64,000 nt of DNA from Alphaproteobacteria bacterium (GCA_029863585.1 JAOTVC010000001.1:2704-66703), one strand, 5' to 3'. Positions 5,621 through 29,666 are shown, counted from the stretch's first letter. The notes: a model not told the origin generated them from the sequence alone. Numbers and translations are program-made.

Positions 5621-6538
5621 ATGGTCGTGACCGCACCGCCTGCCCCTTCGCTTCCCGTCGCCCTGCCGCCTGATCCCAATACGCGCCCGCCGCGCTGGGT
5701 GGTGCCGGCGGGCGCCTGCGACACCCATTTCCACGTCTTCGGGCCCCCCGACCGCTTCCCCTTCGCGGCCACGCGCCGTTATGAGCCGCCGGCGGCCCCG
5801 GTCGAGCATTACTGGAACGTGCAGAAAATCACCGGGCTATCCCGGGCCGTCGCCGTGCAGCCGACGGCACATGGTTTCGACAACGCCGCCATCCTCGACG
5901 CCGTGGCCCGATCGGAGGGGCGGATGCGCGGCGTCGTCTGCATCGACGAAACGGTCACCGATGCCCAGCTTGCGGACATGAAGGCGGCCGGCGCGCGCGG
6001 GGCGCGGGTTTCCCTGATGTCGGACCGGACCGGAAGCACGGCGGCCATCGAAAGCCAGCTCGCCCGGATCGAGGCGATGGGCTGGTCGCTGGTGCTGCAT
6101 ATCGAGCCGCAATTCTTCCTCGCCCACGAAGACTTCATCCGCGCCCTGCCGGTCGCCACCGTCATTGATCACATGGCGCGCATCGATCCGGGCGCCGGGC
6201 TGGATCAGCCGGCGTTCCAGTTGTTGCTGGATCTTCTGGGCGATGACCGCTTCTGGACCAAGATCTGCTGCGTCGACAAGATCAGCACCCGGCCCCAGGC
6301 GCGGGTGGAGGCCGGCCTGCCGTTCGAAGACGTCATTCCTTTCGCCCGCGCCGTGATCGCCCGCGCGCCTGATCGCGTCATCTGGGGTTCGGATTGGCCC
6401 CACGGCAACACCTTCACCCCGGGGCGCACGCCGAACGAAGGCGATCTTCTGGACCTGGTTGCCGAGTTTGCGCCGGACGACGCCCAGCGCCGGGCCGTCC
6501 TGGTCGATAACCCGGCGCGGCTCTACGGCTTCGACTGA
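5621..6538 (+). CDS. amidohydrolase-2 family protein, LigI-like lactonase
   Basis: 305-aa ORF. The N-terminal CDTHFHVFGP metal-binding motif and C-terminal VIWGSDWPH are typical of the 2-pyrone-4,6-dicarboxylate lactonase subgroup. Confidence 0.8.
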   Translation: MVVTAPPAPSLPVALPPDPNTRPPRWVVPAGACDTHFHVFGPPDRFPFAATRRYEPPAAPVEHYWNVQKITGLSRAVAVQPTAHGFDNAAILDAVARSEGRMRGVVCIDETVTDAQLADMKAAGARGARVSLMSDRTGSTAAIESQLARIEAMGWSLVLHIEPQFFLAHEDFIRALPVATVIDHMARIDPGAGLDQPAFQLLLDLLGDDRFWTKICCVDKISTRPQARVEAGLPFEDVIPFARAVIARAPDRVIWGSDWPHGNTFTPGRTPNEGDLLDLVAEFAPDDAQRRAVLVDNPARLYGFD

Positions 6539-6548
6539 GGGGCGGGCG

Positions 6549-7478
6549 TTGATCCTCGCACTGAAATCCGGCCGCCTGTCCGCGCAAGATTGGATCGAGG
6601 CGTTCGCCGCCAAGATGCCGGAGCTCGAGGTCCGGGTGTGGCCCGATTGCGGCGACCGGGCGGAGGTCGATGTGCTGTTCACCACCCGCATCCCCAAGGG
6701 CGAGGTCGCGAGCTTCCCCAACCTCAAGTTCGTGGCCCTGGTGGCGGCGGGGGCCGACCGCTTCCTCGCCGATCCCGATATCCCGGCCCACCTTCCGATC
6801 GTGCGCGCCTACAACCCGGAACAGGCCCTGACCATGAAGGCCTGGGTGGTCTATCAGGTGATCCGCCACCACCGGGAAATGCCGCAATACGAGGCCGACC
6901 AGAAGGCGCATCGATGGGACCGGCGGCCGGTGCTCCAGCCGCGTTTCGTGCGCGTCGGCGTCATGGGGCTGGGCCAGTTGGGCGGCGCGGCGGCGCGATC
7001 GCTCGCCGACCTCGGCTACGACGTCGCCGGCTGGTCGCGGGGCGGGCGGGGGATCGAGGGCGTGGACGATTTCATCGGCCCCGACGGCCTCATGGCGTTT
7101 CTTGCCCGAACGGAGATCCTGATCGGCATCCTGCCGTTCACCCGGGAGACCGATCGCCTGTTGGATGGGCCGGCATTCGCCGCCCTGCCCAAGGGGGCTT
7201 ATGTGATCAATTGCGGGCGCGGCGAATTGATCGTCGAGAAGGACCTGCTGGCGGCCCTCGATTCAGGCCATCTGTCCGGCGCCGCCCTCGATGTCTTCCG
7301 GCAAGAGCCGCTGCCCGCCGATCACGTGTTCTGGGATCATCCCAAGATCACCGTGACACCGCACAATTCCTCGACCTCAAGCGCCTGGGGCGCGGTCGAT
7401 ATCGTGATCGAGAACATCCGGCGCTATCAAAACGGCGAGCCCCTGCGCGCCACCATCGACCGGCAGGCGGGCTACTAA
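6549..7478 (+). CDS. D-2-hydroxyacid dehydrogenase (GhrA-like glyoxylate/hydroxypyruvate reductase)
   Basis: VGVMGLGQLGGAAA Rossmann motif plus NCGRGELIVEKDLLAAL...AALDVFRQEPLP...ITVTPHNS. I moved the start to TTG 6549, which is preceded by GAGGGGCGGG. The ORF-track ATG at 6459 lies inside the upstream gene. Confidence 0.8.
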   Translation: MILALKSGRLSAQDWIEAFAAKMPELEVRVWPDCGDRAEVDVLFTTRIPKGEVASFPNLKFVALVAAGADRFLADPDIPAHLPIVRAYNPEQALTMKAWVVYQVIRHHREMPQYEADQKAHRWDRRPVLQPRFVRVGVMGLGQLGGAAARSLADLGYDVAGWSRGGRGIEGVDDFIGPDGLMAFLARTEILIGILPFTRETDRLLDGPAFAALPKGAYVINCGRGELIVEKDLLAALDSGHLSGAALDVFRQEPLPADHVFWDHPKITVTPHNSSTSSAWGAVDIVIENIRRYQNGEPLRATIDRQAGY

Positions 7479-7524: not shown

Positions 7525-8808
7525 CTACTTGCAGGTGATCTTCGTGGCCAGGTCTTTTTCGCCGAAATGGCGGAAGTCGCAGGCCATGCCCACCTTGAGC
7601 GCCTTGGTCTTGGCCTTCTTGCCGCCGACCGTCACCTTCGAACGCCGGTTATGAATCTTGAAGACGTGGGTCTTGCCGTCCTCTCCCTGCACCGAAATGC
7701 TCTTCTTGGAAAGCTTGGCGATGGTGCCCGCGAGCTTCTTGAGCTTGACCTTGGTGATCTTGCCGATCTCGAGCGCCTTGCTTGCCCGGGCCACCACATT
7801 CTTCGGGTAGGACAGGAAGCGGGCGACCAGTTGGTCGACCTCATCGCCGCTCATGGGCGCGATGTTGAGCTTGCGCCGCTTGGCGTGTTTCAGGAAGGCC
7901 GGGTCCTTCATGGTCGCCATGAAGGCCGCACGCAGGGCCTTGGCGCGCTCAGGGGGCAGCGACGGCGGCGCGGCCAGCGGCCGGCCCAGCGTCTGGCGGC
8001 CGAAGATCAGCTCCATCGCCTTGCGGTCCTCCTCGTTCCGGGCGAAGTCGTAGATATGGGGCACTCCCTTGAGCTCCGGCGTCGGTTCAAACCCGTTCTG
8101 GACGATCACGATGAGGCGGCCCGACTGCCAGTCGCCTAGGCGCACGGACTTCAGGGTCGAAAGCGCCATGGCGCAGCTGCCCTGGACCTCGCCCCGCTGC
8201 ATGGCGAGCAACACGCCGGTGCCACCGGCATAGCCGTGGATTACCTGGGCCCGCGTGCCGATCAGCGCGTTCATGGCGCGGGGATACTCGCTCAGAACGC
8301 CGGTGGCGCCGCTGGCGCCGAAGATCGACGGGCGCGCGATGATGTCCTTGACGCTCTTGATCCCGGACGTGTGCCACATCGCGCAGGTGCCGATGGACCT
8401 TTCCATGTTGCCGATCCAGGTGAACTTGGCGGTATCGAAGCGCGCCTTCTTGTTGCCGAACAGTGGCGAGAACAGGGATCCTGCGCTGAACGCGCCCATG
8501 GCCGTGCCGTCGCGCGGCGCGGAATTGTAAATATAGTTTGCCGCGCGCAGGCTCGAGGCGCCGGGCATGTTCTTGATGATGACCTTGGGGGAGCCTGGAA
8601 TGTGGTTGCTGATATGGGCGCCGACGGTGCGGGCATAGCTGTTGTAGCCGCCGCCCGGCGGGAAGCCGATGACCAGCGAGATGCTCTTGCCCTTGTAGAA
8701 GTCGCCGACCGCGTCGGCGGCGGCGGGCGCGACAAGCGCCCAGGCGGACGCGGCGAAAACCGATAGGGCAAGTGCGCCGCGCGCAGAATTTCGGATGTCT
8801 TTGAACAT
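7525..8808 (-). CDS. Bug/TctC-like periplasmic solute-binding protein with ~80-aa C-terminal extra domain
   Basis: 427-aa ORF with a signal peptide (ALVAPAAADA) and GFPPGGGYNSYARTVG (the GGG.D/N loop of the TTT binding-protein fold). Paralog of 61018-62133. No adjacent tctAB. Confidence 0.7.
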   Translation of the reverse strand: MFKDIRNSARGALALSVFAASAWALVAPAAADAVGDFYKGKSISLVIGFPPGGGYNSYARTVGAHISNHIPGSPKVIIKNMPGASSLRAANYIYNSAPRDGTAMGAFSAGSLFSPLFGNKKARFDTAKFTWIGNMERSIGTCAMWHTSGIKSVKDIIARPSIFGASGATGVLSEYPRAMNALIGTRAQVIHGYAGGTGVLLAMQRGEVQGSCAMALSTLKSVRLGDWQSGRLIVIVQNGFEPTPELKGVPHIYDFARNEEDRKAMELIFGRQTLGRPLAAPPSLPPERAKALRAAFMATMKDPAFLKHAKRRKLNIAPMSGDEVDQLVARFLSYPKNVVARASKALEIGKITKVKLKKLAGTIAKLSKKSISVQGEDGKTHVFKIHNRRSKVTVGGKKAKTKALKVGMACDFRHFGEKDLATKITCK

Positions 8809-8919
8809 GGTTTGAAGCCTCCCGCGTTGTTCTCGCGCGGCGGGCCGAACCGCCGGCAGGAATTGGGCCCCGGCGCCCGGTTGGTCCGGGACTTGGCCAG
8901 AGCGGTATTGGGCCGGATG

Positions 8920-9412
8920 CTACCAAGCCCGGGCCTCCGGCACAATCGCCGCCCTTGTCGCGCGATTTCGACGGGGTGAGGGAAACCGGTCGAGATGGGC
9001 AAGGGCCCGGGGGCAAGGCATGGTGCAGGAACTGCCTGGGTTCGCGCAATCAGAGGCCTTCGTGGCCGCGAGATTCCGCCTCCGATGTCAGGACAGAGGA
9101 CGGTAAGGGAACGAGCGTCGCTTGCCAGCCCGGCCACCAGCGCTTCGCCTTCGCGGCGGTGTGCGCCAGGAAGGCCGCGCGGTCCGAATAGCCGTGGGAA
9201 TCGAAGAGGGTGTCGCCGCGGGCGCGGAAAATGTGGTTGCCACCGAATCCTTCCGCCGGCTATTGCCAGAGCGGAGAGAAACCACTCTCGGGATGGCGGT
9301 CGAGAAAAGCGCGGGCCAGGAGATGACAGGCCCCGCAGGCAACGAAGGCCGGGTCGGGCAGCGCCCAGCGCCGAACCGGATCGTCTCTTATTCCAGGGGC
9401 GAGGACGTACAT
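8920..9412 (-). pseudogene. decayed small conserved ORF (in-frame TAG and TGA plus one frameshift)
   Basis: From ATG 9412 the frame reads MYVLAPGIRDDPVRRWALPDPAFVACGACHLLARAFLDRHPESGFSPLWQ, then TAG (9260-9262), then PAEGFGGNHIF...HGYSDRAAFLAHTAAKAKRWWPGW...HEGL, then TGA (9050-9052), then LREPRQFLHHALP. A +1 shift in a GCCCCCGGGCCC run then gives ALAHLDRF... to TAG 8920-8922. Third codon positions stay strongly G/C across the stops. Confidence 0.5.
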
Positions 9413-9436
9413 CGTTTGCGGCCGCGTCCGTCTGCC

Positions 9437-10651
9437 TCAACAGGGGGGCACGTGGCCGGACGTGAAGTGCACCATCAGCACCACCTTGAACCAGTGCGTC
9501 CAGTCCTCGGGGCTGGAGAGCGGCGCAAGCTCGATGGCCGGATCGGAAAAGACAGGCTTGGCGCTGAGCGCGGCGCGCACCGGCCCGCGTCCCGGGCGGG
9601 TGAGGGTGAGCGTCACCCGGACGCCCTCGATCTCGACGAACACCGCGTGGGGGCGTCCCTCCCGGCTCCATTCGAAACGCCAGCCGGCGGCGTCTCTCCT
9701 CCCTTCGCCGAGCACCACGGGTGTGACGAACCTCGCTTCGCGGCCGTGGAGAAGGGTCTGAAACACGCCCACGGCGAACAGGCGCTCATCCTCCCGCCAC
9801 AGCCAGACCTGGCGCACGTCGGCATGGGCGCGGCTGCAGGCGACGGCGGCGAAACGGCCGAGATAGGAAAGGCGCCGGGGCTTTGATGCCGCGGGGATCG
9901 GCGGCGGCGCGCGCACCATGTCGACCGACTTTCCCCTGGTTTCGAGGCGCAGGCCTTGGGGCCCGGACCGGGTTATGCGCACCCGCCAGGGTTCGCCGAT
10001 ATTGGGCTTGAGCTCCGCTTGCCAGGCCAGACCGCCCGGCCCGCCGCCCGCGAGCGTGAGCGGCGTTCCGCCGGGGCCGACGGCACATTCGGTGCCGGAG
10101 CAGCGATAGAACAGCCAGGCCCGCCCCCGGGCATTGACGATCAGACGGGGATAGGCGGCCTTGTCCTCCCCCTGCCAGTGGCCGATCGGCAGGTCCGGCT
10201 TGTCATCGGCGGCGAAGGGCCCGAAGACCCGCTCGAAGGTCTCCCGGTCGCGGAACTTGGCCTCGAACAGGAGGGCGTTGCGGGCGTTGAAGTTGGCGGT
10301 GAGGCGCGCGCCCTCGCGGCCCGCCTGGACGATCTCGTATCCCATGCCGAGGGCGATCACGCTGAGTGCCGCGCCGAGGGCGCCGCCGGTCTTGCGCCAG
10401 CCCCTCAGGAACAGTTGGCCGGCGGCGACCACATGCAGGCCGCCCAGGATGACGGTGATCAGGAAGATATCGATGCGGATGGCTTCCCGGGTGAAAAAGG
10501 TCATCCGCACTTCGTGCGCGACGGCCAAGATCCCGAGGCCGATGGTCAGCCATAGAGTGATCCGCGCGCCGCCGGAGATGCGGACCGCGGGGACCAGCAA
10601 AACCAGCCACAGGGCAAGCAGTGCGTAATAAAGGCCGAGCGCCAGGGTCAT
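9437..10651 (-). CDS. hypothetical membrane protein (4 N-terminal TM helices plus ~270-aa soluble domain)
   Basis: Good G/C third-position bias. Start placed at the internal ATG (MTLALGLYYALLALWLVLL), which begins the first hydrophobic helix. No family recognised. Confidence 0.55.
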   Translation of the reverse strand: MTLALGLYYALLALWLVLLVPAVRISGGARITLWLTIGLGILAVAHEVRMTFFTREAIRIDIFLITVILGGLHVVAAGQLFLRGWRKTGGALGAALSVIALGMGYEIVQAGREGARLTANFNARNALLFEAKFRDRETFERVFGPFAADDKPDLPIGHWQGEDKAAYPRLIVNARGRAWLFYRCSGTECAVGPGGTPLTLAGGGPGGLAWQAELKPNIGEPWRVRITRSGPQGLRLETRGKSVDMVRAPPPIPAASKPRRLSYLGRFAAVACSRAHADVRQVWLWREDERLFAVGVFQTLLHGREARFVTPVVLGEGRRDAAGWRFEWSREGRPHAVFVEIEGVRVTLTLTRPGRGPVRAALSAKPVFSDPAIELAPLSSPEDWTHWFKVVLMVHFTSGHVPPC

Positions 10652-10771
10652 GACGCAGTCTAGCAACCCTGACGACCGCGCACCATTCGCCGTGGGACCG
10701 GGGCTTGAATGGGACCGCGCCGCTATCCTCGCCATCCTGACGGATGGCGGCCGGACGCCTAACGCGACGCT

Positions 10772-11554
10772 CTAGAAATAAGGATAGCTGTTGTGGATCA
10801 GCTTCGGCACGGTCAGGCCGACCTCTTCGATGCGCCTGATCCCGTCGATTGTGAAGGCCCGGCGCCGGTCCTCGTTGGAGCGGAACTTGAGGCCGAGGCG
10901 CAGGTAGGTGTCGTGGTGACGGCTCTTGGACGGGCCGTACATGTTGAGCGCGAAGCGCCACCACTTGTTCAGGGCCCGCTGCAGCGGCTGGGTCCCGAGC
11001 TTCTCCATCTGGGTCGCCAGGAACTCCATGCCGAGATCGGCGTGGCGTTCTTCCTCCTCCAGGCTGGCCTGCACCGCCCGGGCCCAGGGCGCGTAACTGG
11101 AGCGGGCGTAATCCTCCAGCATGTAATAGGCCGCCCGGTCGATCAGGAAAGTCGACATCACGATGTCGGTCCAACGCATGACCGGCACGAAGCATCGGCA
11201 GAGCGGGTAGAAATGGTGGAAGCTCTGATAGCTCGGCGCCTCGTCCCAGGGCACGCCGAGATCGCTCATCAGCTCAACCACGGTGCGCCAATGGGACAGT
11301 TCCTCGGTCACGATTTCGCCGATGATGCGCCGTTCCTCGATCCCGGGGGCCCGGTTGATCCAGGGCGCATAGGTGTTCGACGCATGGCGTTCGCCATAGG
11401 CCTGGTTCGCCATCAGCCGGAGCAGCGTGGCGCGGTATTCCTCGGTCATCGGACTGTCGAGGTCGACGCTTTCCGGCGGATACTCGCAATATGATGGAAC
11501 CTGAAGGCTTTGGCCGGCCGCGTCCATTCGTTCCACTGTCCTTTCAGAGGCCAC
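10772..11554 (-). CDS. ferritin-like diiron protein, PaaA/PaaC (phenylacetate-CoA oxygenase) family-like
   Basis: 260-aa ORF with two ExxH motifs spaced as in diiron carboxylate proteins (VTEELSHW and LEEEERHADLG). Last gene of the oxc-frc string on the same strand. The exact start is uncertain (ATG 11554 or 11527). Confidence 0.6.
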   Translation of the reverse strand: MASERTVERMDAAGQSLQVPSYCEYPPESVDLDSPMTEEYRATLLRLMANQAYGERHASNTYAPWINRAPGIEERRIIGEIVTEELSHWRTVVELMSDLGVPWDEAPSYQSFHHFYPLCRCFVPVMRWTDIVMSTFLIDRAAYYMLEDYARSSYAPWARAVQASLEEEERHADLGMEFLATQMEKLGTQPLQRALNKWWRFALNMYGPSKSRHHDTYLRLGLKFRSNEDRRRAFTIDGIRRIEEVGLTVPKLIHNSYPYF

Positions 11555-11670
11555 TCGTCGCTCCCCGTCTTGCGATCCCTTTTAGCATATGGGGCGTCTC
11601 TGCAAAGGATTTCCTTGCAATTTGCCTTAACTCGAAGCGCTCGGGGAAGAAGGGATCGATCAACCGATGG

Positions 11671-13803
11671 TTAAAGCAGCCCGGCATTCCGCGCCCAGCG
11701 GTACTTGGCGCCCAGAACTTCCACCGGCACTTCCGTGGTGTATGGGTAGGCCACCACGCCGCGCTCGTAAAGGTATTCCGATGCCTCTTCGACCTCGGTA
11801 TCCCCCACCAGGGAGGCGACGATGGGCTTGTCGATGCCCTTGGCCCGGCATTCCTCGACCACCTCGGCGGTGAGCTTGGCGAACACCATGGGCGGCGTGA
11901 TGATGGTATGCCAATAGCCCAGGATCAGGGCGTGGATGCGGTCGTCTTCCAGCCCCAGGCGGATGGTGTTCTGGTAAGTCGTGGGCGGTTCGCCGCCGGT
12001 GATGTCCACCGGGTTGCCCGAGGCGCCGAAGGGCGGGATGAATTGCTTGAAGGCCTCGTCCAGGTCGGGCGGGAATTTCATCAGGCTGAGCCCGTTGTCC
12101 GCGCAGGCGTCGGACAGCAGCACGCCGGAGCCGCCGGCGCCGGTGATGATGACCACGTTCTCGCCCTTGGGCGTCGGCAGCACCTGCAGGCTGCGGGCGT
12201 ATTCGAGCATCGAACGCAGGCTGGGGGCGCGGATGACGCCGGATTCGCGCAGCACGTCGTCATAGATCTTGTCGTTGCCGGCCAGGGCCCCGGTGTGGGA
12301 GGCCGCAGCCCGGGCCCCGTAGGCGGTCCGCCCGGCCTTCAGCATGATCACCGGCTTCTCCTTGGAGACCCGCTTGGCGACCTCGGCGAAACTGCGCCCG
12401 TCCTTGAGGTCCTCGGCATGCATGGCGATGACCTGGGTGTTCGGGTCCTGTTCGAAATAAGTGAGGAGATCGTCCTCGTCGAGATCCGACTTGTTGCCGA
12501 GCCCGACGATCGCCGACACCCCCATCTTGGTGGACCGCGCGAAGCCGATGATCGACATGCCGACGCCGCCGGACTGCGACGACAGGGCCGTCTTGCCGCG
12601 GACGTCGAAGGCGGTGCAGAAGGTCGCGCAAAGGTTCTCCGGCGTGTAGTAGAAGCCGTAGATGTTGGGGCCCATGATGCGCACACCGTGCTTGCGGGCG
12701 GTGGCGACCAGTTCGTTCTGGAGATCGATTTCCCCGACCTCGCCGAAGCCCGACGGAATCATCACCGCGCCGGGGATGCCTTTCCGGCCGACCTCTTCCA
12801 TGGCGCCGTTGCAGAACTTGGACGGGATCGCGAATACCGCCAGATCGACCGGGCCTGGGATGTCGAGAACGCTGGCATAGACCTTCTTGCCGAGGATCTC
12901 CTCCGCCTTGGGGTGGACCGGGTGGATTTCGCCTTTGAACCCGCCGTTGATCAGGTTCTTCATCACCGAATTGCCGATCTTGCCGTCCTCGGCCGAGGCG
13001 CCGATCACGGCGACGGATTTGGGATGGAAGATCCGGTTCATGGCCGTGAGGATCTCTTCCTGGGACGGCCGGAACACTTCCTTGGGCGGGGCGAAATCGA
13101 CGGTGATCAGGGCATCCACGGCGGTGGCCCCGCCGGGGGTTGCGAACACCGGGTTGAGATCCATTTCCTGGATTTCCGGGAAATCGCTGATCAGGTTCGA
13201 GACTTTGGAGATGATTGCGGCGATCGCGTCCTTGTCGACCGCTTCGGCGCCGCGCACGCCGTCCAGCACCTCGGCGGCGGCGATGGACTGAAGCATGCCG
13301 CGCGCCTCCGCTTGCGAGGCCGGCGCCAGGTGGAAGGTGATGTCCTTGAGGACCTCGACCAGGATGCCGCCAAGGCCGAAGGCCACCAACTTGCCGAAGC
13401 TGGGGTCGGTGACGGCGCCGATGATGACCTCCTGGGCGCCCGCTGGGCCCATCTCCTGCACCTGGACCCCGTCGATCGCGGCGTCCGGCTTATGGGCCCT
13501 GGCGGCGGCGACGATCTCGTCATAGGCGGCGGCGGCTTCGCCCGCGTCCTTGACGCCGATCTTCACGCCGCCGGCCTCGGTCTTGTGCAGGATGTCGGCC
13601 GACACGATCTTCATGACCACCGGAAAGCCGATGCCGCCGGCAATCTCCGCCGCCTCGGGCGCGGACGTGGCGATCCCCTCGGCCGGCAGCGGAATGCCAT
13701 AGGCGTCGCAGACGGCCTTGGCTTCCGGCGCGGTCAGGCTGGTTCGCCCCGCGGCCTTGACCTTGTCCAGGACGCTGCGGACGGCTGCTTTGTCTGAACT
13801 CAT
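11671..13803 (-). CDS. ADP-forming (NDP-forming) acyl-CoA synthetase, fused ATP-grasp then CoA-binding/ligase domains
   Basis: The N-terminal ATP-grasp part reads APEAKAVCDAYGIPLP...GFPVVMKIVSADILHKTEAGGVKIGV. It is followed by the CoA-binding PKSVAVIGASAEDGKIGNSVMKNL and the phospho-His loop AASHTGALAGND. Start set at ATG 13803 (MSSDKAAV), preceded by GGGGGAGGA. Confidence 0.85.
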   Translation of the reverse strand: MSSDKAAVRSVLDKVKAAGRTSLTAPEAKAVCDAYGIPLPAEGIATSAPEAAEIAGGIGFPVVMKIVSADILHKTEAGGVKIGVKDAGEAAAAYDEIVAAARAHKPDAAIDGVQVQEMGPAGAQEVIIGAVTDPSFGKLVAFGLGGILVEVLKDITFHLAPASQAEARGMLQSIAAAEVLDGVRGAEAVDKDAIAAIISKVSNLISDFPEIQEMDLNPVFATPGGATAVDALITVDFAPPKEVFRPSQEEILTAMNRIFHPKSVAVIGASAEDGKIGNSVMKNLINGGFKGEIHPVHPKAEEILGKKVYASVLDIPGPVDLAVFAIPSKFCNGAMEEVGRKGIPGAVMIPSGFGEVGEIDLQNELVATARKHGVRIMGPNIYGFYYTPENLCATFCTAFDVRGKTALSSQSGGVGMSIIGFARSTKMGVSAIVGLGNKSDLDEDDLLTYFEQDPNTQVIAMHAEDLKDGRSFAEVAKRVSKEKPVIMLKAGRTAYGARAAASHTGALAGNDKIYDDVLRESGVIRAPSLRSMLEYARSLQVLPTPKGENVVIITGAGGSGVLLSDACADNGLSLMKFPPDLDEAFKQFIPPFGASGNPVDITGGEPPTTYQNTIRLGLEDDRIHALILGYWHTIITPPMVFAKLTAEVVEECRAKGIDKPIVASLVGDTEVEEASEYLYERGVVAYPYTTEVPVEVLGAKYRWARNAGLL

Positions 13804-13902
13804 GATGTCCTCCCCCAAGAATGTCGGCCCAACCAGGTTTGGCCTTCGATGTGATTGACTGGGTTTCCGGCGGGCGGCCGATGCGGGCCGCCCCACCGCG
13901 GT

Positions 13903-15156
13903 CTATTCGCCGATGGCGCCGGATTTCCTGATCTCCTCAATCTCGTCCGCGCCGTAGTCCAAGACCTGCTGCAGGATCTCTTCCGTATGTTCGCCGAGAA
14001 GCGGCGAGCGGGTGACTTCGGCAGGCGAATCCGAAAGCTTCACGGGATTGCCGACGGTTAGGTACTTGCCCCGGGTCGGATGGTCGACTTCGACGATGGT
14101 GCCGGTGTCGCGCAGGGCCTGCTCCTCGGCCAGCTCCTTCATGGACAGGATCGGCCCGCAGGGAATGTCCAGCGGGTTGCAGATCTCCATGACCTCGAAC
14201 TTGGTCTTGGTCTTGGTCCATTCCTCGATGGTGTCGAAGATGTGGGTGAGCTTGTTCAGCCGGGCGTTGGGCTTGGCGTATTCTGGGTCTTCCTTCCATT
14301 CCGGCTTGCCGATGACGTCGCAGATGTTGCCCCAGATCGGCGCCTGGGTGATGAAGTAGATATAGGCGTTGGGATCGGTCTCGTAGCCCTTGCATTTGAG
14401 GATCCAGCCGGGCTGGCCGCCGCCGGAATCGTTGCCGGCGCGCGGCGTGGCGTCGCCGAAGGGGATGTCCTGGCCGTACTGGCTGTATTCGGTAAGCGGC
14501 CCGTGGGCGAGGCGCTGCTGGTCGCGCAGCTTGACCCGGCACAGGTTCAGCACGCCGTCCTGCATGGCGGCCTGAACGCGCTGGCCCCTGCCCGAGCGTT
14601 CGCGATGGTACAGCGCCGTGACGATGCCGAGCGCCAGGTGCAGGCCGGTGCCCGAATCGCCGATCTGGGCGCCAGTGACCAGAGGCGGCCCGTCCAGGAA
14701 GCCGGTGGTTGAGGCGGCGCCGCCGGCGCATTGCGCGACGTTCTCATAGACCTTGCAGTCCTCATAGGGCCCGGGGCCGAAGCCCTTGATCGAGGCGTAG
14801 ATCATCCGGGGATTGATCTCCTGGATGCGGTCCCAGCCGAAACCCATGCGGTCGAGCGCGCCGGGGGCGAAATTCTCCACCAGCACGTCGCAGGTCTTGA
14901 CCAGGCGCTCCAGCACCTCCTTGCCCTTCTCATTCTTGGTGTTCAGCGTGATCGAGCGCTTGTTGTGGTTGAGCATGGTGAAATAGAGCGAATCGACATC
15001 GGGGATGTCGCGCAGCTGGCCGCGGGTGATGTCGCCGATGCCGGGCCGCTCCACCTTGATGACGTCGGCTCCGAACCAGGCCAGCAGCTGGGTGCAGGTC
15101 GGACCCGATTGGACATGGGTGAAGTCCAGGATTCTGACGTCTTTTAGTGCTTCCAT
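13903..15156 (-). CDS. frc: formyl-CoA:oxalate CoA-transferase
   Basis: 417-aa [66 protein letters not shown] matches the Frc/YfdW N-terminus almost residue for residue, from memory. Adjacent to oxc. Confidence 0.93.
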
Positions 15157-15199
15157 TCGATGCTCCCTTCAGGGACCCGGCTCGATTGACAGGGTTCAC

Positions 15200-16930
15200 T
15201 CATTTCTTCGCGACGACGCTCTGCGGATTGAGGTTGCCGATGCGCCCGCTTTCGGTGCCGGCCTGCTCGTCGATGATGGCGTTGACGAGGGTCGGTTTTC
15301 CCGACTCCAGGGCTTCGATCACCGCGCGCGTCAGTTCGTCGGGGCTGGTGGCATAGACGCCCCTGCCGCCGAAGGCCTCCATCATCAGCTCGTAGCGCGC
15401 ATCCTTGACGAATACCGTGGGCGCCACATCGGGACCCCCGGTCGGGTTGACATCGGTGCCCCGGTAGATGCCGTTGTTGTTGAAGACCACGATGCAGACC
15501 GGGAGGTTGTAACGGCAGATCGTCTCGATCTCCATGCCGGAAAAGCCAAAGGCGCTGTCCCCTTCGACGGCCAGGACCGGCTTTCCGGTTTCGATCGCGG
15601 CTGCAACGGCGAAGCCCATGCCGATGCCCATGACCCCCCAAGTGCCGACGTCGAGGCGCTTGCGCGGCTGATAGATGTCTATGATGGAACGGGCGAAGTC
15701 GAGCGTGTTGGCGCCCTCGTTGACCAGCACCGTGTCCGGGCGATCCTTGATGATCCGGCGCAGCGCGCCGAGCGCACCGTGATAGTCCATGGGCACATTG
15801 TTGTTTTGCAGGCGCGGCGCCATGCGCTCGACATTGCTTGCGACCTTCTCCGTGACCTCGCCGGTCCAATCGGAGGGCGGCGCGTCCCAGTTGTCGCCCA
15901 TCGCTTCGAGAAGCGCGGAAACGCAAGAGCCGATGTCGCCCACCACCGGCGCCGCGATCTCGACATTGGAGTCCATCTCCCTGGGCTCGATGTCGATCTG
16001 GATGAACTGCTTTGAATGCGGCGGCCCCCATGCCTTGCCCTTGCCGTGCGACAGGAGCCAATTGAGGCGCGCGCCGATCATCATCACGACGTCGGACTTC
16101 TGCAGGACCAACGAGCGCGCCGCGGCCGCCGACTGGGGATGGGTGTCGGGCAAAAGGCCCTTCGCCATGCTCATGGGCAGATAGGGAATGCCGCTCTTCT
16201 CGACAAGGCCGCGAATTTCCGCATCGGCCTGCGCATAGGCGGCCCCCTTGCCGAGAATGATCAGCGGCCGCTTGGCGCTCTTTAGAAGATCAAGCGCGCG
16301 GGCGACCGCGCCGGCCGAGGGGATCTGGGGCGGCGCCGGATCGATGACCTCGACGAGCGATTTCCGGCCCGCCTCCGCATCCATGGTCTGGCCCAGGAGC
16401 TTGCCCGGAAGATCGAGATACACGCCCCCCGGTCGGCCCGACAGCGCGGCGCGGATGGCGCGCGCTACGCCGATGCCGATGTCCTCGGCGTGAAGAATGC
16501 GGAAAGCCGCCTTGCAGAGCGGCTTGGCGATCGCGAGCTGGTCCATCTCTTCATAGTCGCCCTGCTGCAGATCGATGATCTCGCGCTCGGACGAACCCGA
16601 CATCAGGATCATCGGGAAGCAGTTGGTAGTCGCGTTGGCCAGCGCCGTCAGGCCGTTCAGGAAGCCCGGGGCCGAGACCGTGAGGCAGAGACCCGGTTTC
16701 TTGGAGAGAAAGCCCGCCATCGCCGCGGCATTGCCGGCGTGCTGCTCGTGACGGAACGATATCACGCGCATCCCTGCCGCCTGCGCGAAGCGCCCCAAAT
16801 CGGTGATCGGAATGCCCGGCACCGTGTAGATCGTGTCCAGACCATTGAGCTTCAGTGCGTCGATGATCAGGTGGAAGCCGTCGGTCAAGTCGTGGGGCTC
16901 CACTTCCGTAACGGTCTCGAGTTCTGTCAT
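15200..16930 (-). CDS. oxc: oxalyl-CoA decarboxylase (ThDP-dependent)
   Basis: 576-aa ORF with [39 protein letters not shown] and the ThDP motif [22 protein letters not shown]...NNNGIY. Located immediately upstream of frc. Confidence 0.93.
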
Positions 16931-16978
16931 GGGGCTCTCCCTTACGGGACCGCTGCGGTCCCGGAATTCCTTGGTCGT

Positions 16979-17665
16979 TCAGTCGAGTTCGACATGGCGC
17001 GCCACATGGTCGCGCAGTTTCAGGGTGTGCTCGCGCACCAAACGTTCGGCCCGTTCGGTGTCCCGCGCCTCCAGGGCGTCGACGATGGCGAGGTGATCCT
17101 CGATCGAGCGCTTGGCGCGGTCCTCTTCGAAAATGGTGCGTGCCCGGATGGCCCGGACATGCATGAACAGGCGGTCGGTGATCTCGGCGATCAGCTGGCA
17201 TTTCGACAGCGAGATGATCGCCTGATGGAAGGAAATATTGGTTTCGGAATAATCATCGATATGGCCGTTGACCGCCTCGGTGTCGTAGACGCTCAGCATG
17301 CGGCGCAGGCCGGCAATCTCCGCGTCCCCGGCCTCGGTGGTGATCAGCCGCGCCGCCATGCTTTCCAGCGCCGCCCACACCGTGATCATGTCGAGAATTT
17401 CCTGCTTCGACTTGCGTCGGATGTAGATGCCGCGGCGCGGCTCGATGCGCACCAGCCCTTCCTGGTCGAGGCGCACCAGGGCTTCGCGCAGCGGCGTGCG
17501 GCTGATGCCCAACTGTTCCGACAGGCTGCGTTCGTCGAGACGGAGCTCCGCGTCGTCGTCGTAGATGTTCATGGTGGTGATGGCGGCTTTCAGCTCGTCG
17601 TAAATCCGCGCCTTGAGGCTGAAGTTCTCGCCGATCGGCTGAATTCGTAAGACGGTTTCGTTCAT
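16979..17665 (-). CDS. GntR-family transcriptional regulator (FadR/FCD subfamily)
   Basis: The winged-helix part is RLDERSLSEQLGISRTPLREALVRLDQEGLV, followed by a helical FCD-like C-terminal domain. Start set at ATG 17665 (MNETVLRI); the longer ORF-track N-terminus is Arg/Pro-rich junk. Confidence 0.85.
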   Translation of the reverse strand: MNETVLRIQPIGENFSLKARIYDELKAAITTMNIYDDDAELRLDERSLSEQLGISRTPLREALVRLDQEGLVRIEPRRGIYIRRKSKQEILDMITVWAALESMAARLITTEAGDAEIAGLRRMLSVYDTEAVNGHIDDYSETNISFHQAIISLSKCQLIAEITDRLFMHVRAIRARTIFEEDRAKRSIEDHLAIVDALEARDTERAERLVREHTLKLRDHVARHVELD

Positions 17666-17892: not shown

Positions 17893-17909
17893 TGGTATAC
17901 AATATACCA
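17893..17909. promoter_or_regulatory. candidate GntR/FadR-type operator upstream of the gntR-oxc-frc string
   Basis: TGGTATA-CAA-TATACCA, with 7-bp inverted arms, lies 228 nt upstream of the regulator start. The core TGGTATAC recurs at 21339-21350. Confidence 0.55.
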
Positions 17910-18013: not shown

Positions 18014-19522
18014 TCATGCCTTGACGGATTTGCGCTTTTGCATGGCCTTGATCAGCGGCCAGAGGAGCAACACGATGGCGATCGCCAGGATGGAGCCCGA
18101 GATCGGGCGGCTGACGAAGATATCGAACCCGCCCTGGTTCATGATCAGGGACTGGCGCATGCTGGCTTCGGCAAGGGGGCCGAGCACGATCGCCAGCACC
18201 GCCGGTGCCAGGGGATAATCGAGCTTGCGCATGAGATAGCCGACGACCCCGAAGATCAGCATCAGCCAGACGTCGTGCATGTCCTTGGTCGGCGCGTAGC
18301 CGCCCACCACGCACAGCACGTAGATCACCGGGGCCAGGATCGTGAAGGGCATCCGCAGCACCGCGATGAAGGCCGGAATGAAGGCGATGTTGATCAGAAG
18401 CGCGAACAGATTGGCGGCATATAGGCTGGCAATCAGGCCCCACACGAAATCCTGGTGGTCGAGGAACAGGCGGGGGCCCGGCTCCAGCCCCCAGATCACC
18501 ATTCCGCCGAGCAGGATCGCGGTGGTGGGCGAGCCGGGGATGCCGAGGGTCAGCATCGGCAGCATGGAGCCGGTGCTGGCTGCGTTGTTGGCCGCTTCCG
18601 GGGCCACCACGCCCTTGATATTGCCCTTGCCGAAGGTCTCGGGCTCCTTGTCCATGGTCTTGGCGACGCCGTAGGCCATCAGCGAACCCGGGGTCGCCCC
18701 CGCCGCCGGCAGGATGCCGACGAAGTAGCCCAGGAAGGAGCCCATCAGCATCTGGCGGATGCTGCCCTTGAGCTGCCTGACCGTGTCCAGGATGCGCCGG
18801 AGGGAAACCTCGGCCTTGGTGATCACCATCTTGCCCTTGGATTGTTCGATCACCCAGAGCATCTCGCCGATGCCGTAGATGCCGATGGCCAGCACCAGGA
18901 AATTGATGCCGTGATAGAAGCCGGGCAGATCGAAGAAGATCAGCCGCGGCTTGCCGCTGACGATGTCGAGCCCTACGGTGCTCAGGGCCAGGCCGATCAT
19001 GATGGAGAACAGGGTCTTGGGGATGTCGTCGCTGCCGAGCCCGACGAAGGTGGCGAAGGCCAGGATCATCAGGGTGAATTCCTCCGGCGGGCCGAACTTC
19101 AACGCGACATCGGCGAGCGGCGGCGCGAACAGGGTGAACAGCACCACGGAAATGGTGCCGCCGACGAAGCTGGCGGTGGCCGCGGCGACAAGCGCCCGAT
19201 CGGCTTCCCCTTTGAGCGCCATGGGGCGGCCGTCGAAGGTTGTCGCCACCGCGGTCGAGGCGCCGGGAATGCCCAGCATGATGGAGCTGATGGCGCCGCC
19301 ATACATGGCGCCGTAATAGAGCGCGCCGAGAAAGATGATGGCGCCGGTGGGCGGCACCAGGAAGGTCAGCGGCAGCAGGATGGCGACGCCGTTGACCGAG
19401 CCCAAACCCGGCATCGCCCCGATGAACAGGCCGGCGACGCAGCCCGCCGCCACCAGAAGCAGATTCTGCCATTGCAGGGCGACGGCGAAACCATCGAGCA
19501 GATGATTGAAAATATCGATCAT
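18014..19522 (-). CDS. tctA: tripartite tricarboxylate transporter large permease
   Basis: 502-aa polytopic ORF starting MIDIFNHLLDGFAVAL, with GAMPGLGSVNGVAILLPLTF and GIPGSPTTAILLGG, typical of TctA. Confidence 0.9.
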   Translation of the reverse strand: MIDIFNHLLDGFAVALQWQNLLLVAAGCVAGLFIGAMPGLGSVNGVAILLPLTFLVPPTGAIIFLGALYYGAMYGGAISSIMLGIPGASTAVATTFDGRPMALKGEADRALVAAATASFVGGTISVVLFTLFAPPLADVALKFGPPEEFTLMILAFATFVGLGSDDIPKTLFSIMIGLALSTVGLDIVSGKPRLIFFDLPGFYHGINFLVLAIGIYGIGEMLWVIEQSKGKMVITKAEVSLRRILDTVRQLKGSIRQMLMGSFLGYFVGILPAAGATPGSLMAYGVAKTMDKEPETFGKGNIKGVVAPEAANNAASTGSMLPMLTLGIPGSPTTAILLGGMVIWGLEPGPRLFLDHQDFVWGLIASLYAANLFALLINIAFIPAFIAVLRMPFTILAPVIYVLCVVGGYAPTKDMHDVWLMLIFGVVGYLMRKLDYPLAPAVLAIVLGPLAEASMRQSLIMNQGGFDIFVSRPISGSILAIAIVLLLWPLIKAMQKRKSVKA

Positions 19523-19609: not shown

Positions 19610-20125
19610 CTAGAGGAAGATGTCATAGAGCGGGTAATAGATGAGTTCGTTGAGGAAATATTGGCCGGCCAGGCCCTTGGGGAGTTCGATCTTCAAACCG
19701 ATCTCGAAGAAGAAGAAGGTGGCCATCGGCGTCAGCAGCCCGACGGCGCCGGTCAAGGGCCAGGCGTGGTTGCCGATCCAGCGTAGGTAGAAGACCAGGT
19801 AGAGCGGAACGGAAACGTATACGCCCAAGATGTGGATCAGGCCGATCATCATGGTCAGGGATCCGGCACCGATCAGGAACAGCTTCAGCGAACGGCGGTC
19901 CATGTATGGCTCGGTGGATTGGGACGGCGGGCTCAACCGCCGGGCCCAACGCAGGATGATCCACGCGCAGCATGCCAGCATGCCGGCGCCCAGCCAGAAC
20001 GGGAACGCCCCGCCGCCCGGACCCGATCTGGGGATCCAGCCGACGGGGAGTTCCGCACTTTTCCACATCAGATAGGCGGAGAAGCCCGCCATGACGACGG
20101 CCATGATCAATTCCGCCCGACGCAT
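19610..20125 (-). CDS. tctB: tripartite tricarboxylate transporter small membrane subunit
   Basis: 171-aa ORF with 4 TM helices, positioned between tctC and tctA. Confidence 0.75.
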   Translation of the reverse strand: MRRAELIMAVVMAGFSAYLMWKSAELPVGWIPRSGPGGGAFPFWLGAGMLACCAWIILRWARRLSPPSQSTEPYMDRRSLKLFLIGAGSLTMMIGLIHILGVYVSVPLYLVFYLRWIGNHAWPLTGAVGLLTPMATFFFFEIGLKIELPKGLAGQYFLNELIYYPLYDIFL

Positions 20126-20170: not shown

Positions 20171-21175
20171 CTACTTGATTTCCCCAAGGTCTTTCAGCAG
20201 CTTGCGATGCACCTCGCGTTCCTGGGTGAAGTACGCAGTCAGCTCCTTGCCGGTCAGCCAACCGGGCACCAGCCCTTTCTTAGACAGATAGGACTGCCAC
20301 TCCTTGGAGTTGTAGACCTTGTCGAAGACCGACACGTAAAAGTCCTGGGCGTCCTTTGGAATCCCCGGAGGCGCAATGATCGACCGCTGCATGTAATAGA
20401 CCATGTCGGATCCGTGGCCGAGTTCCTCGAAGGTCGGGATCTGACCCCATTTGCCCTTCAACTTGCCCTTGGGCGTGAAGCTCGCCAGCGGGATGGATTT
20501 CTTCGCATCCCAGAAGCCGACCTGCTCGGACGGGTTGTTGACGGTCGAATTGATGTGCTTGCCGATCAGCTGCTTGGCCACGGTTCCGCCCCCCTTGAAG
20601 GGAACGTAGGTCATCTTGATGCCGAATTTCTTCTCCAGCAGGGCGGTGACCAGGGAATCTTCCTGGCCCTTCCCGGTGCCGCCCATCTTCCAGCCGGCGG
20701 CTCCCGCCTTCTTGACCGCCGCGACGTAGTCCTCGACGGACTTGATACCACTGTCGCTGACAACCCAAAGCTGGAAGGTGTCCTCCGCGAGCCGCGCGAT
20801 CGGCGTGAATTTGGAAATGTCGACCCCGATGCCGGGATTGCGCAGCGGCGTCGTGTAGAGGCTGTTCAGCGTCGCCAGGATGATATGCGGGTTGCCCGCA
20901 TTGTCCTTCAGATACCTGAGTGCCTCGGCGCCCGAACCGCCGCCCTTGTTATTGGGAATGAAGGGCTTCGGGGAAAATTTGTGCTTTTCGATAATGCCCT
21001 GGATGAAGCGTGCCAGCCGGTCGGCACCACCGCCCTTGCCGGCCATGATCACGAATTCTACGGGTTTTCTCGGCTTCCATGCCGCCGCGGCATCGGTCGA
21101 TTGGACAAAGCTTCCCAGACCGAACGCGAACACCGCTCCGAGCGCGATTGCGCCCATTCCCACTGCTTGTTTCAT
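20171..21175 (-). CDS. tctC: tripartite tricarboxylate transporter substrate-binding protein
   Basis: 334-aa ORF with a signal peptide and the MAGKGGGADRLARF loop. First gene of a tctCBA string. Confidence 0.85.
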   Translation of the reverse strand: MKQAVGMGAIALGAVFAFGLGSFVQSTDAAAAWKPRKPVEFVIMAGKGGGADRLARFIQGIIEKHKFSPKPFIPNNKGGGSGAEALRYLKDNAGNPHIILATLNSLYTTPLRNPGIGVDISKFTPIARLAEDTFQLWVVSDSGIKSVEDYVAAVKKAGAAGWKMGGTGKGQEDSLVTALLEKKFGIKMTYVPFKGGGTVAKQLIGKHINSTVNNPSEQVGFWDAKKSIPLASFTPKGKLKGKWGQIPTFEELGHGSDMVYYMQRSIIAPPGIPKDAQDFYVSVFDKVYNSKEWQSYLSKKGLVPGWLTGKELTAYFTQEREVHRKLLKDLGEIK

Positions 21176-21338
21176 AATAAATTCTCCCAGTTCAACATGG
21201 ACGTGATGCTGCCATGAAACAAACCTGCCGTGGTTCTATCTGGGGCCCCTGTCTGAAGCGTGCGACCCGTTTCGGCTCGTTTCACCGTCGTTGTTACGCG
21301 GTACGAATTAATGAGCTACGCCAGGCAGTGTTTGTATG

Positions 21339-21350
21339 TGGTATACCACG
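21339..21350. promoter_or_regulatory. candidate GntR/FadR-type operator upstream of tctCBA
   Basis: Perfect 12-bp palindrome GTGGTATACCAC about 165 nt upstream of the tctC start. It shares TGGTATAC with the box at 17893-17909. Confidence 0.5.
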
Positions 21351-28733: not shown

Positions 28734-29666
28734 GTGGCCATGAGAATCCTGATGGTCGGGGCCGGCGGTGTCGGCGGTTATTTCGGCGGCAGGTTGGCGG
28801 CGGCGGGCGACGACGTCACCTTCATTGCCCGCGGTGCGCATCTCGCGGCGATGCGCGAGACCGGCCTTCGCATCGAGAGCCCCTTGGGCGATGCCCGGGT
28901 CGATCCGGTCCAGGCGGTGGAGACGGCCCGGGGGCTGGATCCCATGGATGTCGTCTTCGTGGCCGTCAAGATCGGCGATACCGGGGACGCCATCGCAGCC
29001 TGCCGCGCGGCGGTGGGGCCGGATACGGTCGTGATTTCGTTGCAGAATGGCCTGGCCGCCGATGACGCGTTGATCGACGCCTTCGGCGCGGCCCGGGTCG
29101 CGGGCGGCGTGGCTTATATCGCCGCCCAGGTCGCGCGGCCGGGGCTGATCCAGCATATCGGCGCCAATCAGCGCATCCAGGTTGGCGAGCTCGCGGGCGG
29201 CACCAGCGCCCGGTGCGAGGCTATCGCCGCCCGGCTTCGCGCCGCCGGCATCGACGGCGAGGCGGTGGCGGACATCGTGCGCGCCATGTGGGACAAGTTT
29301 TCGTTCCTGGTGGCGCTCGCCGGTGTCACGTCGCTCACCGGCGAACCGATCGGTGTCATCCGCGCCGATCCCGACATGCGCGCTTTCCTGCATGAGGTGA
29401 TGAAGGAGACGGTGGCGGTCGGCCGCGCGCGCGGCGTCGACTTTCCTTCCGATTATGCCGACCAAAGGCTCGCCTTCGCCGATACCCTGCCCGAAGACAT
29501 GCGCTCGTCGATGTATCACGATTTGTCTGCGGGAAAGCCGCTCGAGCTCGATTGGCTGACCGGCGCGGTGGTGGAGATGGGAAAGGCCGCGGGCATTCCG
29601 ACGCCGGCCAACTTGGCGATCTATGCCGCCCTCAAATCCCGCCGCCACGGGGGCCGCACGTCCTAA
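28734..29666 (+). CDS. 2-dehydropantoate 2-reductase family oxidoreductase (PanE/ApbA-like)
   Basis: RILMVGAGGVGGYFGGRLAAAGDDVTFIARG Rossmann start and a C-terminal SSMYHDLSAGKPLELDWLTGAVV. Confidence 0.8.
   Translation: MAMRILMVGAGGVGGYFGGRLAAAGDDVTFIARGAHLAAMRETGLRIESPLGDARVDPVQAVETARGLDPMDVVFVAVKIGDTGDAIAACRAAVGPDTVVISLQNGLAADDALIDAFGAARVAGGVAYIAAQVARPGLIQHIGANQRIQVGELAGGTSARCEAIAARLRAAGIDGEAVADIVRAMWDKFSFLVALAGVTSLTGEPIGVIRADPDMRAFLHEVMKETVAVGRARGVDFPSDYADQRLAFADTLPEDMRSSMYHDLSAGKPLELDWLTGAVVEMGKAAGIPTPANLAIYAALKSRRHGGRTS

Follow-up and report, generated by a model that had tools for sequence, protein, structure and literature searches.

Textbook bacterial oxalate catabolism relies on two enzymes only, formyl-CoA:oxalate CoA-transferase (Frc) and oxalyl-CoA decarboxylase (Oxc), and surveys of oxalotrophy use both as marker genes. 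The cycle that they form requires a thioester to start. In plants and yeast, oxalate is converted into oxalyl-CoA, ahead of an oxalyl-CoA decarboxylase, by AAE3-type synthetases (EC 6.2.1.8) of the adenylate-forming (AMP-binding) superfamily, which release AMP and PPi; to our knowledge, the known oxalyl-CoA synthetases are AMP-forming and eukaryotic. In Escherichia coli the need for priming is met by YfdE, an acetyl-CoA:oxalate CoA-transferase like Acetobacter UctC, whose gene shares an operon with frc and oxc (PMC3720670). Here we analyse an oxalate locus carried by a 64,000-nt stretch of DNA from an Alphaproteobacteria bacterium (GCA_029863585.1, JAOTVC010000001.1:2704-66703), hereafter the window, to which all coordinates refer. 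Its source is a 4.09-Mb metagenome-assembled genome (MAG) in 383 contigs. In this locus oxc and frc are followed by the gene of a single-chain ADP-forming acyl-CoA synthetase (ACD), a candidate oxalate-CoA ligase.

Nine genes are co-directional on the minus strand, in the order tctC, tctB, tctA, gntR, oxc, frc, ACD, a diiron protein gene and orf432. The initial annotation had singled out the five from gntR to the diiron gene, with spacers of 99 and 116 nt on either side of ACD, and all were located as it described. The regulator gene gntR (16979..17665) encodes a protein of the GntR/FCD family (Pfam GntR and FCD), present in 49 of 81 loci. The oxc product (15200..16930) scores 1010 bits against the NCBIfam model NF006721, whose cutoff is 557, and has Tyr126, Glu127, Tyr489, Ser561 and Arg563, residues that are invariant in 25 Oxc-type sequences and that are assigned, after the O. 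formigenes enzyme, to the active site and its lid. The frc product (13903..15156) exceeds the cutoffs of both Frc equivalog models (TIGR03253, 727 bits for a cutoff of 504; NF003809, 735 for 442), and frc is the only true Frc copy in this genome. After a spacer of 99 nt comes ACD (11671..13803), its ATG preceded by a strong Shine-Dalgarno sequence, GGGGGAGGA; a further 116 nt, or 143 nt if translation starts at Met10, separate it from the diiron gene (10772..11554).

The ACD protein, 710 aa long, contains the Pfam domains ATP-grasp_5 (residues 15-235), CoA_binding/CoA_binding_2 (261-384), Succ_CoA_lig (402-538) and Ligase_CoA_2 (550-710), all far above cutoffs, and has the five subdomains of the ACD superfamily in the order 3-4-1-2-5 (beta-alpha). 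His503, in the SHTGALAG loop, and His73, in the motif ILHKTE, are both at least 98% invariant across 80 orthologues and align with H503 and H69 of Nmar_1309, so that the phosphohistidine and the second, ATP-grasp histidine of the superfamily are both in place. Judging from these domains and residues, the protein is predicted to be a single-chain ADP-forming acyl-CoA synthetase, competent for catalysis. A Pat-like regulatory acetyltransferase was considered and rejected, since the protein lacks a GNAT domain and retains the two catalytic histidines.

The initial annotation had called the beta-first domain order the less usual one and had pointed to the SHTGALAG loop. The loop is there, and the order is indeed a minority form: the six further ACD paralogues of the window's genome (contigs C19, C30, C194, C269, C327 and C382) are all alpha-beta. 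Their alpha parts are 26-34% identical, and one of the six frames holds a TGA; a SucD homologue is also encoded in the genome. As a novelty, the domain order was rejected, since Nmar_1309, an archaeal CO2-fixation enzyme of solved structure (PDB 9y43, PMC13018889), has the same one. The two single chains are colinear over residues 6-624, their catalytic histidines align, and they share the superfamily mechanism with its swinging phosphohistidine loop. They differ in that the chain match reaches 408 bits, that ACD scores 454 bits against the NCBIfam model of Nmar_1309 for a cutoff of 1300, that T413, N555 and P559 of Nmar_1309 are G, G and S in ACD, and that ACD is a bacterial enzyme of an oxalate locus. 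ACD1 of Ca. Korarchaeum cryptofilum (PDB 4xyl/4xym) and the Pyrococcus-type ACS have the same catalytic loop, belong to the same superfamily and align over their full length with the alpha (255-706) and beta (9-233) parts of ACD; they are made of two subunits and form acetate, whereas ACD is one beta-alpha chain found in an oxalate context. Against the models for ADP-forming acetate-CoA ligase (EC 6.2.1.13), ACD remains below the cutoffs, with 472 bits versus 567 for TIGR02717 (alpha domain) and 462 versus 1200 for NF045494 (Archaeoglobus type). It is likewise below the 3-hydroxypropionate-CoA / 4-hydroxybutyrate-CoA ligase models (NF045492, 454 bits; NF045493, 549 bits; both cutoffs 1300 bits).

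The initial annotation had asked how often such a synthetase is found beside frc and oxc. Eighty loci, each encoding an ACD orthologue at 71-89% identity, were fetched from Alpha-, Beta- and Gammaproteobacteria, Gemmatimonadota (Longimicrobiales), Acidobacteria, Binatia and "delta" lineages, and the window proteins were placed in them by tblastn. In 61 of the 80, frc is immediately upstream of ACD and co-directional with it, with spacers of 12-604 nt, many of them just 12-50 nt. Three of the 19 others have a flank too short to judge. Among the rest, ACD is divergent from gntR-oxc-frc in L012 and a few are unlinked, while in three Bosea loci (L018, L028 and L036) formate dehydrogenase genes lie between oxc-frc and ACD. 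Two random samples were also searched, one of 401 genomes of the same class, where a true Frc was counted at 60% identity or more, and one of 401 genomes of the phylum. In the class sample, 7 genomes carried ACD and about 38 a true Frc. Each of the 7 also had Frc, adjacent in 6 of them, and the seventh ACD was on a 5.7-kb contig. About 18% of the Frc-bearing genomes of this sample thus carry ACD as well. The phylum sample yielded 6 further ACD genomes, all with Frc within 5 kb: Frc is adjacent to ACD in one of them, and ACD is divergent from gntR-oxc-frc in the other five, a large-genome group. Pooling both samples, 13 of 13 ACD genomes have Frc, within 5 kb in 12. Three genomes of the window's own family have neither ACD nor Frc, hence a patchy distribution, consistent with horizontal transfer. 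The view that the synthetase extends the oxalate module is thus borne out by the 61 loci and by the confinement of ACD to Frc-bearing genomes in both samples, and we are confident that ACD belongs functionally to the oxalate locus.

Other genes found beside ACD in these loci encode NAD-formate dehydrogenase, ApbA/PanE-family reductases, MFS transporters and SucCD-like proteins; the ApbA/PanE-family reductase is a candidate oxalyl-CoA reductase. In Bosea and other lineages, SucC/SucD (MtkAB)-like pairs, FAH-family genes, a second GntR gene and PanE-like reductase genes recur next to ACD (L015, L018, L023, L025, L051, L057, L058, L060, L073, L077, L080 and L083), as if they formed a more extensive island for oxalate assimilation.

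In 31 of the 80 ACD loci, the slot of Oxc is occupied by a thiamine diphosphate (ThDP) enzyme of an unrelated lineage, here ThDP2, which is only about 25% identical to Oxc (L014-L017, L020, L022, L030, L033, L037-L039, L042-L045, L048, L055, L056, L060, L066, L068, L069, L071, L074, L075, L078, L080, L084, L087 and L088; an example is L016:4781-6535). Its best matches are acetolactate-synthase-like and 2-hydroxyacyl-CoA lyase models, both below cutoff, and it has Leu, Gln, Ile and Gly at the positions of the catalytic Tyr, Glu, Tyr and Ser of Oxc. These loci retain GntR, the operator described below, TctCBA, Frc and ACD, and ThDP2 may be an unrecognised type of oxalyl-CoA decarboxylase. As the linkage survives the replacement of Oxc in 31 loci, ACD appears tied to Frc and the substrates of Frc, and not to a particular order of genes. 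Another arrangement was found in L044 (6239-10133), where ThDP2 directly abuts ACD with no frc between them, and where the two have a formate dehydrogenase and a PanE-like reductase on their flanks. The whole of this 2.4-Mb MAG yielded no Frc. There, ACD would have to make the substrate of the decarboxylase, and the pair may represent a Frc-less oxalate module.

The clade formed by these synthetases is compact. Its members are about 68-100% identical, and in a search of 1.84 billion representatives of 50%-identity clusters the whole frc-linked clade corresponded to one representative (68% identity, 1060 bits). The next matches beyond it were 51-59% identical (744-629 bits), after which identity fell to about 40%. 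Two of the nearest out-clade relatives were placed on contigs, P0187, which is alpha-beta fused, and P0189, a split alpha subunit; both lie away from frc and oxc. At least 98% invariance within the clade was found for 38% of the ACD positions. On these alignments and placements, we regard the clade as discrete, strongly conserved and recruited into oxalate-catabolic loci. When the clade was compared with the six paralogues and the three solved enzymes, seven residues were found to be unique to it, S408, G413, R423, G434, H462, G555 and S559. In Nmar_1309, residues T413, N555, A557 and G558 contact the bound acid and phosphate (PMC13018889), and G413, G555 and S559 of ACD coincide with these positions or adjoin them. 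H462 is two residues ahead of the Glu that pairs with the phosphohistidine. Because of these clade-specific residues at the acyl site, the acyl pocket seems to have been remodelled, with more space and more polar or cationic groups, and we infer that it would suit a small dicarboxylate better than formate or acetate.

From these elements, the reading that we favour, with moderate confidence, is that ACD is an ADP-forming oxalate-CoA ligase, which would both prime the Frc/Oxc cycle and replenish it. The proposed reaction is oxalate + ATP + CoA → oxalyl-CoA + ADP + Pi, and the thioester would be fed to the cycle without any need for formyl-CoA. ACD would start the cycle in the absence of formyl-CoA, would make good the thioester lost via labile formyl-CoA, and would replace the oxalyl-CoA drawn off to assimilation, for example by reduction to glyoxylate. 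Formyl-CoA was the least stable of the thioesters tested in the study of YfdE, with a half-life of 1.9 h (PMC3720670), and the reduction of oxalyl-CoA to glyoxylate for assimilation occurs in methylotrophs, in which case the withdrawn thioester is not regenerated (cited in PMC3720670). The direction of ligation is favoured because the formation of ATP from oxalyl-CoA, ADP and Pi is estimated at +11 ± 7 kJ/mol; in the same review, succinyl-CoA synthetase is listed as accepting oxalate (PMC8085960). The initial annotation had left two roles side by side, the priming of the cycle with oxalyl- or formyl-CoA and the conservation of thioester energy as ATP. Priming, or more exactly a net supply of oxalyl-CoA, fits better by analogy with YfdE (PMC3720670), while ATP conservation is the less likely of the two, given the same +11 kJ/mol and the competition with Frc for formyl-CoA.

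Several points weigh against this reading. We infer both the substrate, oxalate, for every member of the clade, and the direction of the reaction. About 80% of the Frc-bearing genomes of the class sample have no ACD, which is thus dispensable. Four Deltaproteobacteria/Binatia genomes hold ACD orthologues 72-74% identical to that of the window and have no true Frc, Oxc or ThDP2, so that ACD is not strictly dependent on the oxalate module. These orthologues (L052, L079, L082 and L085, ACD at about 8001-10130 in each) stand in housekeeping-type contexts, next to DnaE, a GTPase, a CDP-alcohol phosphatidyltransferase and a metallo-beta-lactamase-fold gene; an oxalate-only function does not account for them. 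In Bosea, frc and ACD are parted by a terminator-like hairpin and about 600 nt, or by formate dehydrogenase genes, and in the window read-through from frc to ACD past a GC-rich hairpin is assumed. Finally, the pocket argument is based on a sequence alignment to one published structure.

Among the other readings, the one that survives best has ACD acting on a different acid (acetate, succinate, glycolate or glyoxylate, for example), whose CoA ester would be an alternative donor for Frc and so prime the cycle indirectly; or else ACD would be a general acetyl-CoA synthetase merely travelling with the operon. Its best family matches are indeed acetate, 3-hydroxypropionate and 4-hydroxybutyrate ligases, orthologues exist in genomes lacking any oxalate module, and succinate is accepted by some Frc enzymes (PMC8085960). 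However, ACD scores far under the cutoffs of every named ligase model, and its acyl-site residues are unlike those of the acetate, 3-hydroxypropionate and 4-hydroxybutyrate enzymes and set it apart from the three solved enzymes and the six paralogues alike. As cells never lack acetyl-CoA or succinyl-CoA, a dedicated operon ligase would be superfluous. The genome also encodes six other ACD paralogues, as well as a SucD homologue. The closest relatives beyond the clade are found outside oxalate loci, which argues for a function specific to the clade. We consider this reading unlikely.

A little less probable still is an action on the C1 partner, ACD being either a formate-CoA ligase that makes formyl-CoA for Frc, or an enzyme working in reverse, formyl-CoA + ADP + Pi → formate + CoA + ATP. 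The most constant partner of ACD is Frc, and formyl-CoA is the substrate that Frc would have in common with either ThDP type. Formate dehydrogenase genes are nearby in about 15 loci, and L044, devoid of Frc, needs some route to dispose of formyl-CoA. ACD enzymes are also reversible in principle (PMC8085960). In the same review, though, substrate-level phosphorylation with C1 and dicarboxyl-CoAs, and with acyl-CoAs other than C2-C4, is judged doubtful (PMC8085960). Making ATP from formyl-CoA would moreover starve Frc, and the same ATP would be owed back for the activation of oxalate. Lastly, the changes found in the clade replace larger residues by Gly and add His and Ser; a pocket so altered should be bigger and more polar, the opposite of what the smaller formate requires.

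It is very unlikely, in our opinion, that ACD works in both directions within one pathway, or forms ATP on formyl-CoA and so conserves the thioester energy left after oxalyl-CoA decarboxylation. If it did form ATP, the ligase would stand in for the CoA-transferase in MAGs of the L044 type, and oxalyl-CoA derived from glyoxylate oxidation would give a net substrate-level phosphorylation, a new mode of energy conservation in aerobic oxalate/glyoxylate catabolism. As for a chance or lineage-specific juxtaposition of frc and ACD devoid of function, the majority of Frc-bearing genomes do lack ACD, but this explanation is effectively refuted by recurrence in 61 of 80 loci, in several phyla and in two architectures (co-directional and divergent), by the shared operators, and by a link that persists where another ThDP enzyme takes the place of Oxc.

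These operators are palindromes of the form TGGTAT-N5-ATACCA. A perfect copy, TGGTATACAATATACCA (17893..17909), predicted to be the operator of the GntR/FCD regulator, lies about 230 nt upstream of gntR, and an operator-like palindrome with one mismatch, TTGTATGTGGTATACCA (21332..21348), lies upstream of tctC. Allowing two mismatches at most, 4 matches were counted in the window, for 0.47 expected. Exact copies occupy the same two positions, upstream of gntR and of tctC, in 15 related loci; the palindrome is just upstream of gntR in at least 13, including loci of the ThDP2 type, and the tctC-upstream copy is also found in L016, L017, L022, L030 and L037. In L102, which has the divergent architecture, two copies of TGGCAT-N5-ATGCCA lie in the spacer between gntR and ACD (10585-10605 and 10672-10692). 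No copy was found in the frc-ACD or ACD-diiron spacers of the window. The short FadR-type pattern TGGTNNNACCA was no more frequent than expected by chance, and the longer palindrome is the informative one. The placement of the operators fits a single regulon made of tctCBA and gntR-oxc-frc-ACD, and we propose that the GntR/FCD regulator probably controls both sets of genes through this palindrome.

The tct genes encode a TTT-family solute-binding protein (tctC, 20171..21175, Pfam TctC), a small membrane subunit (tctB, 19610..20125, Pfam TctB) and a large membrane subunit (tctA, 18014..19522, Pfam TctA, 499 bits), all on the minus strand. TctA is 75-89% identical to its counterparts in L009, L010, L016 and L017, and a TctCBA set adjoins the module in about 27 related loci. 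TctCBA is a candidate oxalate importer of the TTT family that would act in place of OxlT. Solute-binding genes of the TctC (Bug) family are hugely expanded in this genome, where the TctC-like orf427 gave about 100 tblastn matches.

Just past the stop codon of frc, a GC-rich hairpin with an 8-bp stem and no T-run was found on the minus strand (13872..13893, GGGCGGCC-cgcatc-GGCCGCCC). Comparable hairpins are present in L009, L010 and many other frc-ACD spacers, other spacers being only 12-50 nt long, and in Bosea loci the spacer contains terminator-like hairpins with T-runs. The hairpin of the window is possibly an intercistronic attenuator or stabiliser, and such elements may set a lower ratio of ACD to Frc expression. 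In a promoter and terminator scan, neither canonical terminators nor sigma-70 promoters were detected in the frc-ACD and ACD-diiron spacers, with totals near the shuffle expectation, which makes it weak evidence either way; ACD is presumed to be co-transcribed with frc.

The diiron gene is the last of the five genes of the initial annotation, which saw it as a further extension of the operon. The open reading frame encodes 260 aa from a GTG start; homologues begin at Met10, which gives a 251-aa protein starting at 11527. This PaaA-like, stand-alone ferritin-like protein matches Pfam PaaA_PaaC with 89.7 bits and keeps the six residues that align with the diiron ligand positions of PaaA from E. 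coli (3pvr), namely Glu, Glu-x-x-His, Asp and Glu-x-x-His. It shares the PaaA_PaaC ferritin-like fold family and the six ligand positions with PaaA, the catalytic subunit of phenylacetyl-CoA epoxidase (PDB 3pvr, 4iit), and with the stand-alone protein of PDB 4mud. PaaA is longer (311-320 aa) and belongs to a phenylacetate context, whereas the window protein, of 251-260 aa, is found in an oxalate context with no PaaB, PaaC, PaaD or PaaE genes nearby. It scores 101 bits against the PaaA equivalog TIGR02156, whose cutoff is 280, and is thus not a phenylacetyl-CoA epoxidase by that model. Within about 10 kb on either side, where the tct genes, gntR, oxc, frc, ACD, orf432, a TctC-like gene, a 2-hydroxyacid dehydrogenase and an amidohydrolase were identified, no PaaB-, PaaC-, PaaD- or PaaE-type partner or reductase was present.

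The claim that the diiron protein extends the operon stands as far as position is concerned, the gene being the last of the operon in this lineage, and is not supported as a general rule. Among the 80 genome loci a single one carries the gene, as do a few closely related metagenome contigs. Homologues of at least 67% identity are few, and those that could be placed are all last in the same operon (L009, L089 and L090). L010, with an ACD 87% identical, lacks the gene. At about 49% identity, homologues stand alone in contexts unrelated to one another or to oxalate, and no partner gene is conserved beside them. By sequence and distribution, we take the gene to encode a real diiron protein and to be a recent, lineage-restricted addition to the operon. 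Whether it functions in the oxalate pathway, for instance as an O2-dependent enzyme acting on oxalyl-CoA, formyl-CoA or a derived CoA ester, is a more tentative matter. The PaaA and BoxB families act on CoA thioesters, and the gene is co-directional with ACD, 116-143 nt past it with no predicted terminator between, in the same position in all placeable close homologues and with all six metal-ligand positions kept. The single genome locus among 80, the absence from L010, the unrelated contexts of the more distant homologues, the score far below the PaaA cutoff and the lack of a PaaB-, PaaC- or PaaE-type partner or reductase nearby all speak against it, and we hold such a function to be possible and rather doubtful.

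Beyond the diiron gene, orf432 (9437..10735, minus strand) encodes a hypothetical protein with a hydrophobic N-terminus and no Pfam match, whose sole homologue, in L009, is 58% identical. It is absent from L089, where a convergent 2-hydroxyacid dehydrogenase gene comes after the diiron gene, and its membership in the operon is doubtful. Relative to L010, orf432 was inserted together with the diiron gene. Downstream of the operon are genes for an Amidohydrolase_2 protein, a D-2-hydroxyacid dehydrogenase and a TctC-like protein (5621-7478, plus strand, and 7525-8808, minus strand). The same amidohydrolase, dehydrogenase and TctC-like genes come after ACD in L010, and the dehydrogenase gene follows the diiron gene in L089 and L090; this enzyme could be a glyoxylate/hydroxypyruvate reductase tied to assimilation. 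An ApbA/PanE-family reductase gene is present at 28734-29666 (plus strand), about 11 kb from oxc, and its product is about 31% identical to those of the PanE-like genes found elsewhere beside ACD. This protein is either a possible oxalyl-CoA reductase candidate or an ordinary ketopantoate reductase.

Compared with the systems described at the outset, the likeness is one of function. YfdE and UctC are analogues of ACD and not homologues, and share neither its fold nor its chemistry: YfdE, a family III CoA-transferase, works with acetyl-CoA (PMC3720670), while ACD is an ATP-grasp/CoA-ligase enzyme that uses ATP. In operons of the yfdXWUVE type the accessory enzyme is such a family III transferase; the accessory gene of the window encodes ACD and not a CoA_transf_3 protein, so that the comparison is functional only. 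AAE3, if our reading of ACD is true, catalyses the same net conversion of oxalate into oxalyl-CoA ahead of a decarboxylase; ACD has no AMP-binding domain and would cost one ATP equivalent, as against two for AAE3. The enzyme family, the beta-alpha order and the concept of priming are already known. What appears to be new is that oxalate operons have a dedicated ACD clade of their own, widely transferred and probably active as an ADP-forming oxalyl-CoA synthetase. A full-text search of the literature found no ADP/NDP-forming synthetase linked to oxc or frc, a prior mention in work on M. extorquens or B. japonicum being possible.

If the proposed reaction is correct, an ADP-forming oxalate-CoA ligase would be a new enzyme activity, of use for engineered oxalate-degrading strains and for synthetic C1/C2 pathways that need cheap oxalyl-CoA or formyl-CoA. 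If ThDP2 replaces Oxc in many loci, counts of oxalotrophs based on oxc may be too low. For the organisms themselves, such a ligase would account for the way in which aerobic oxalotrophs set the Frc/Oxc cycle going and keep it supplied, the oxalyl-CoA withdrawn for assimilation being paid for with one ATP equivalent instead of two.

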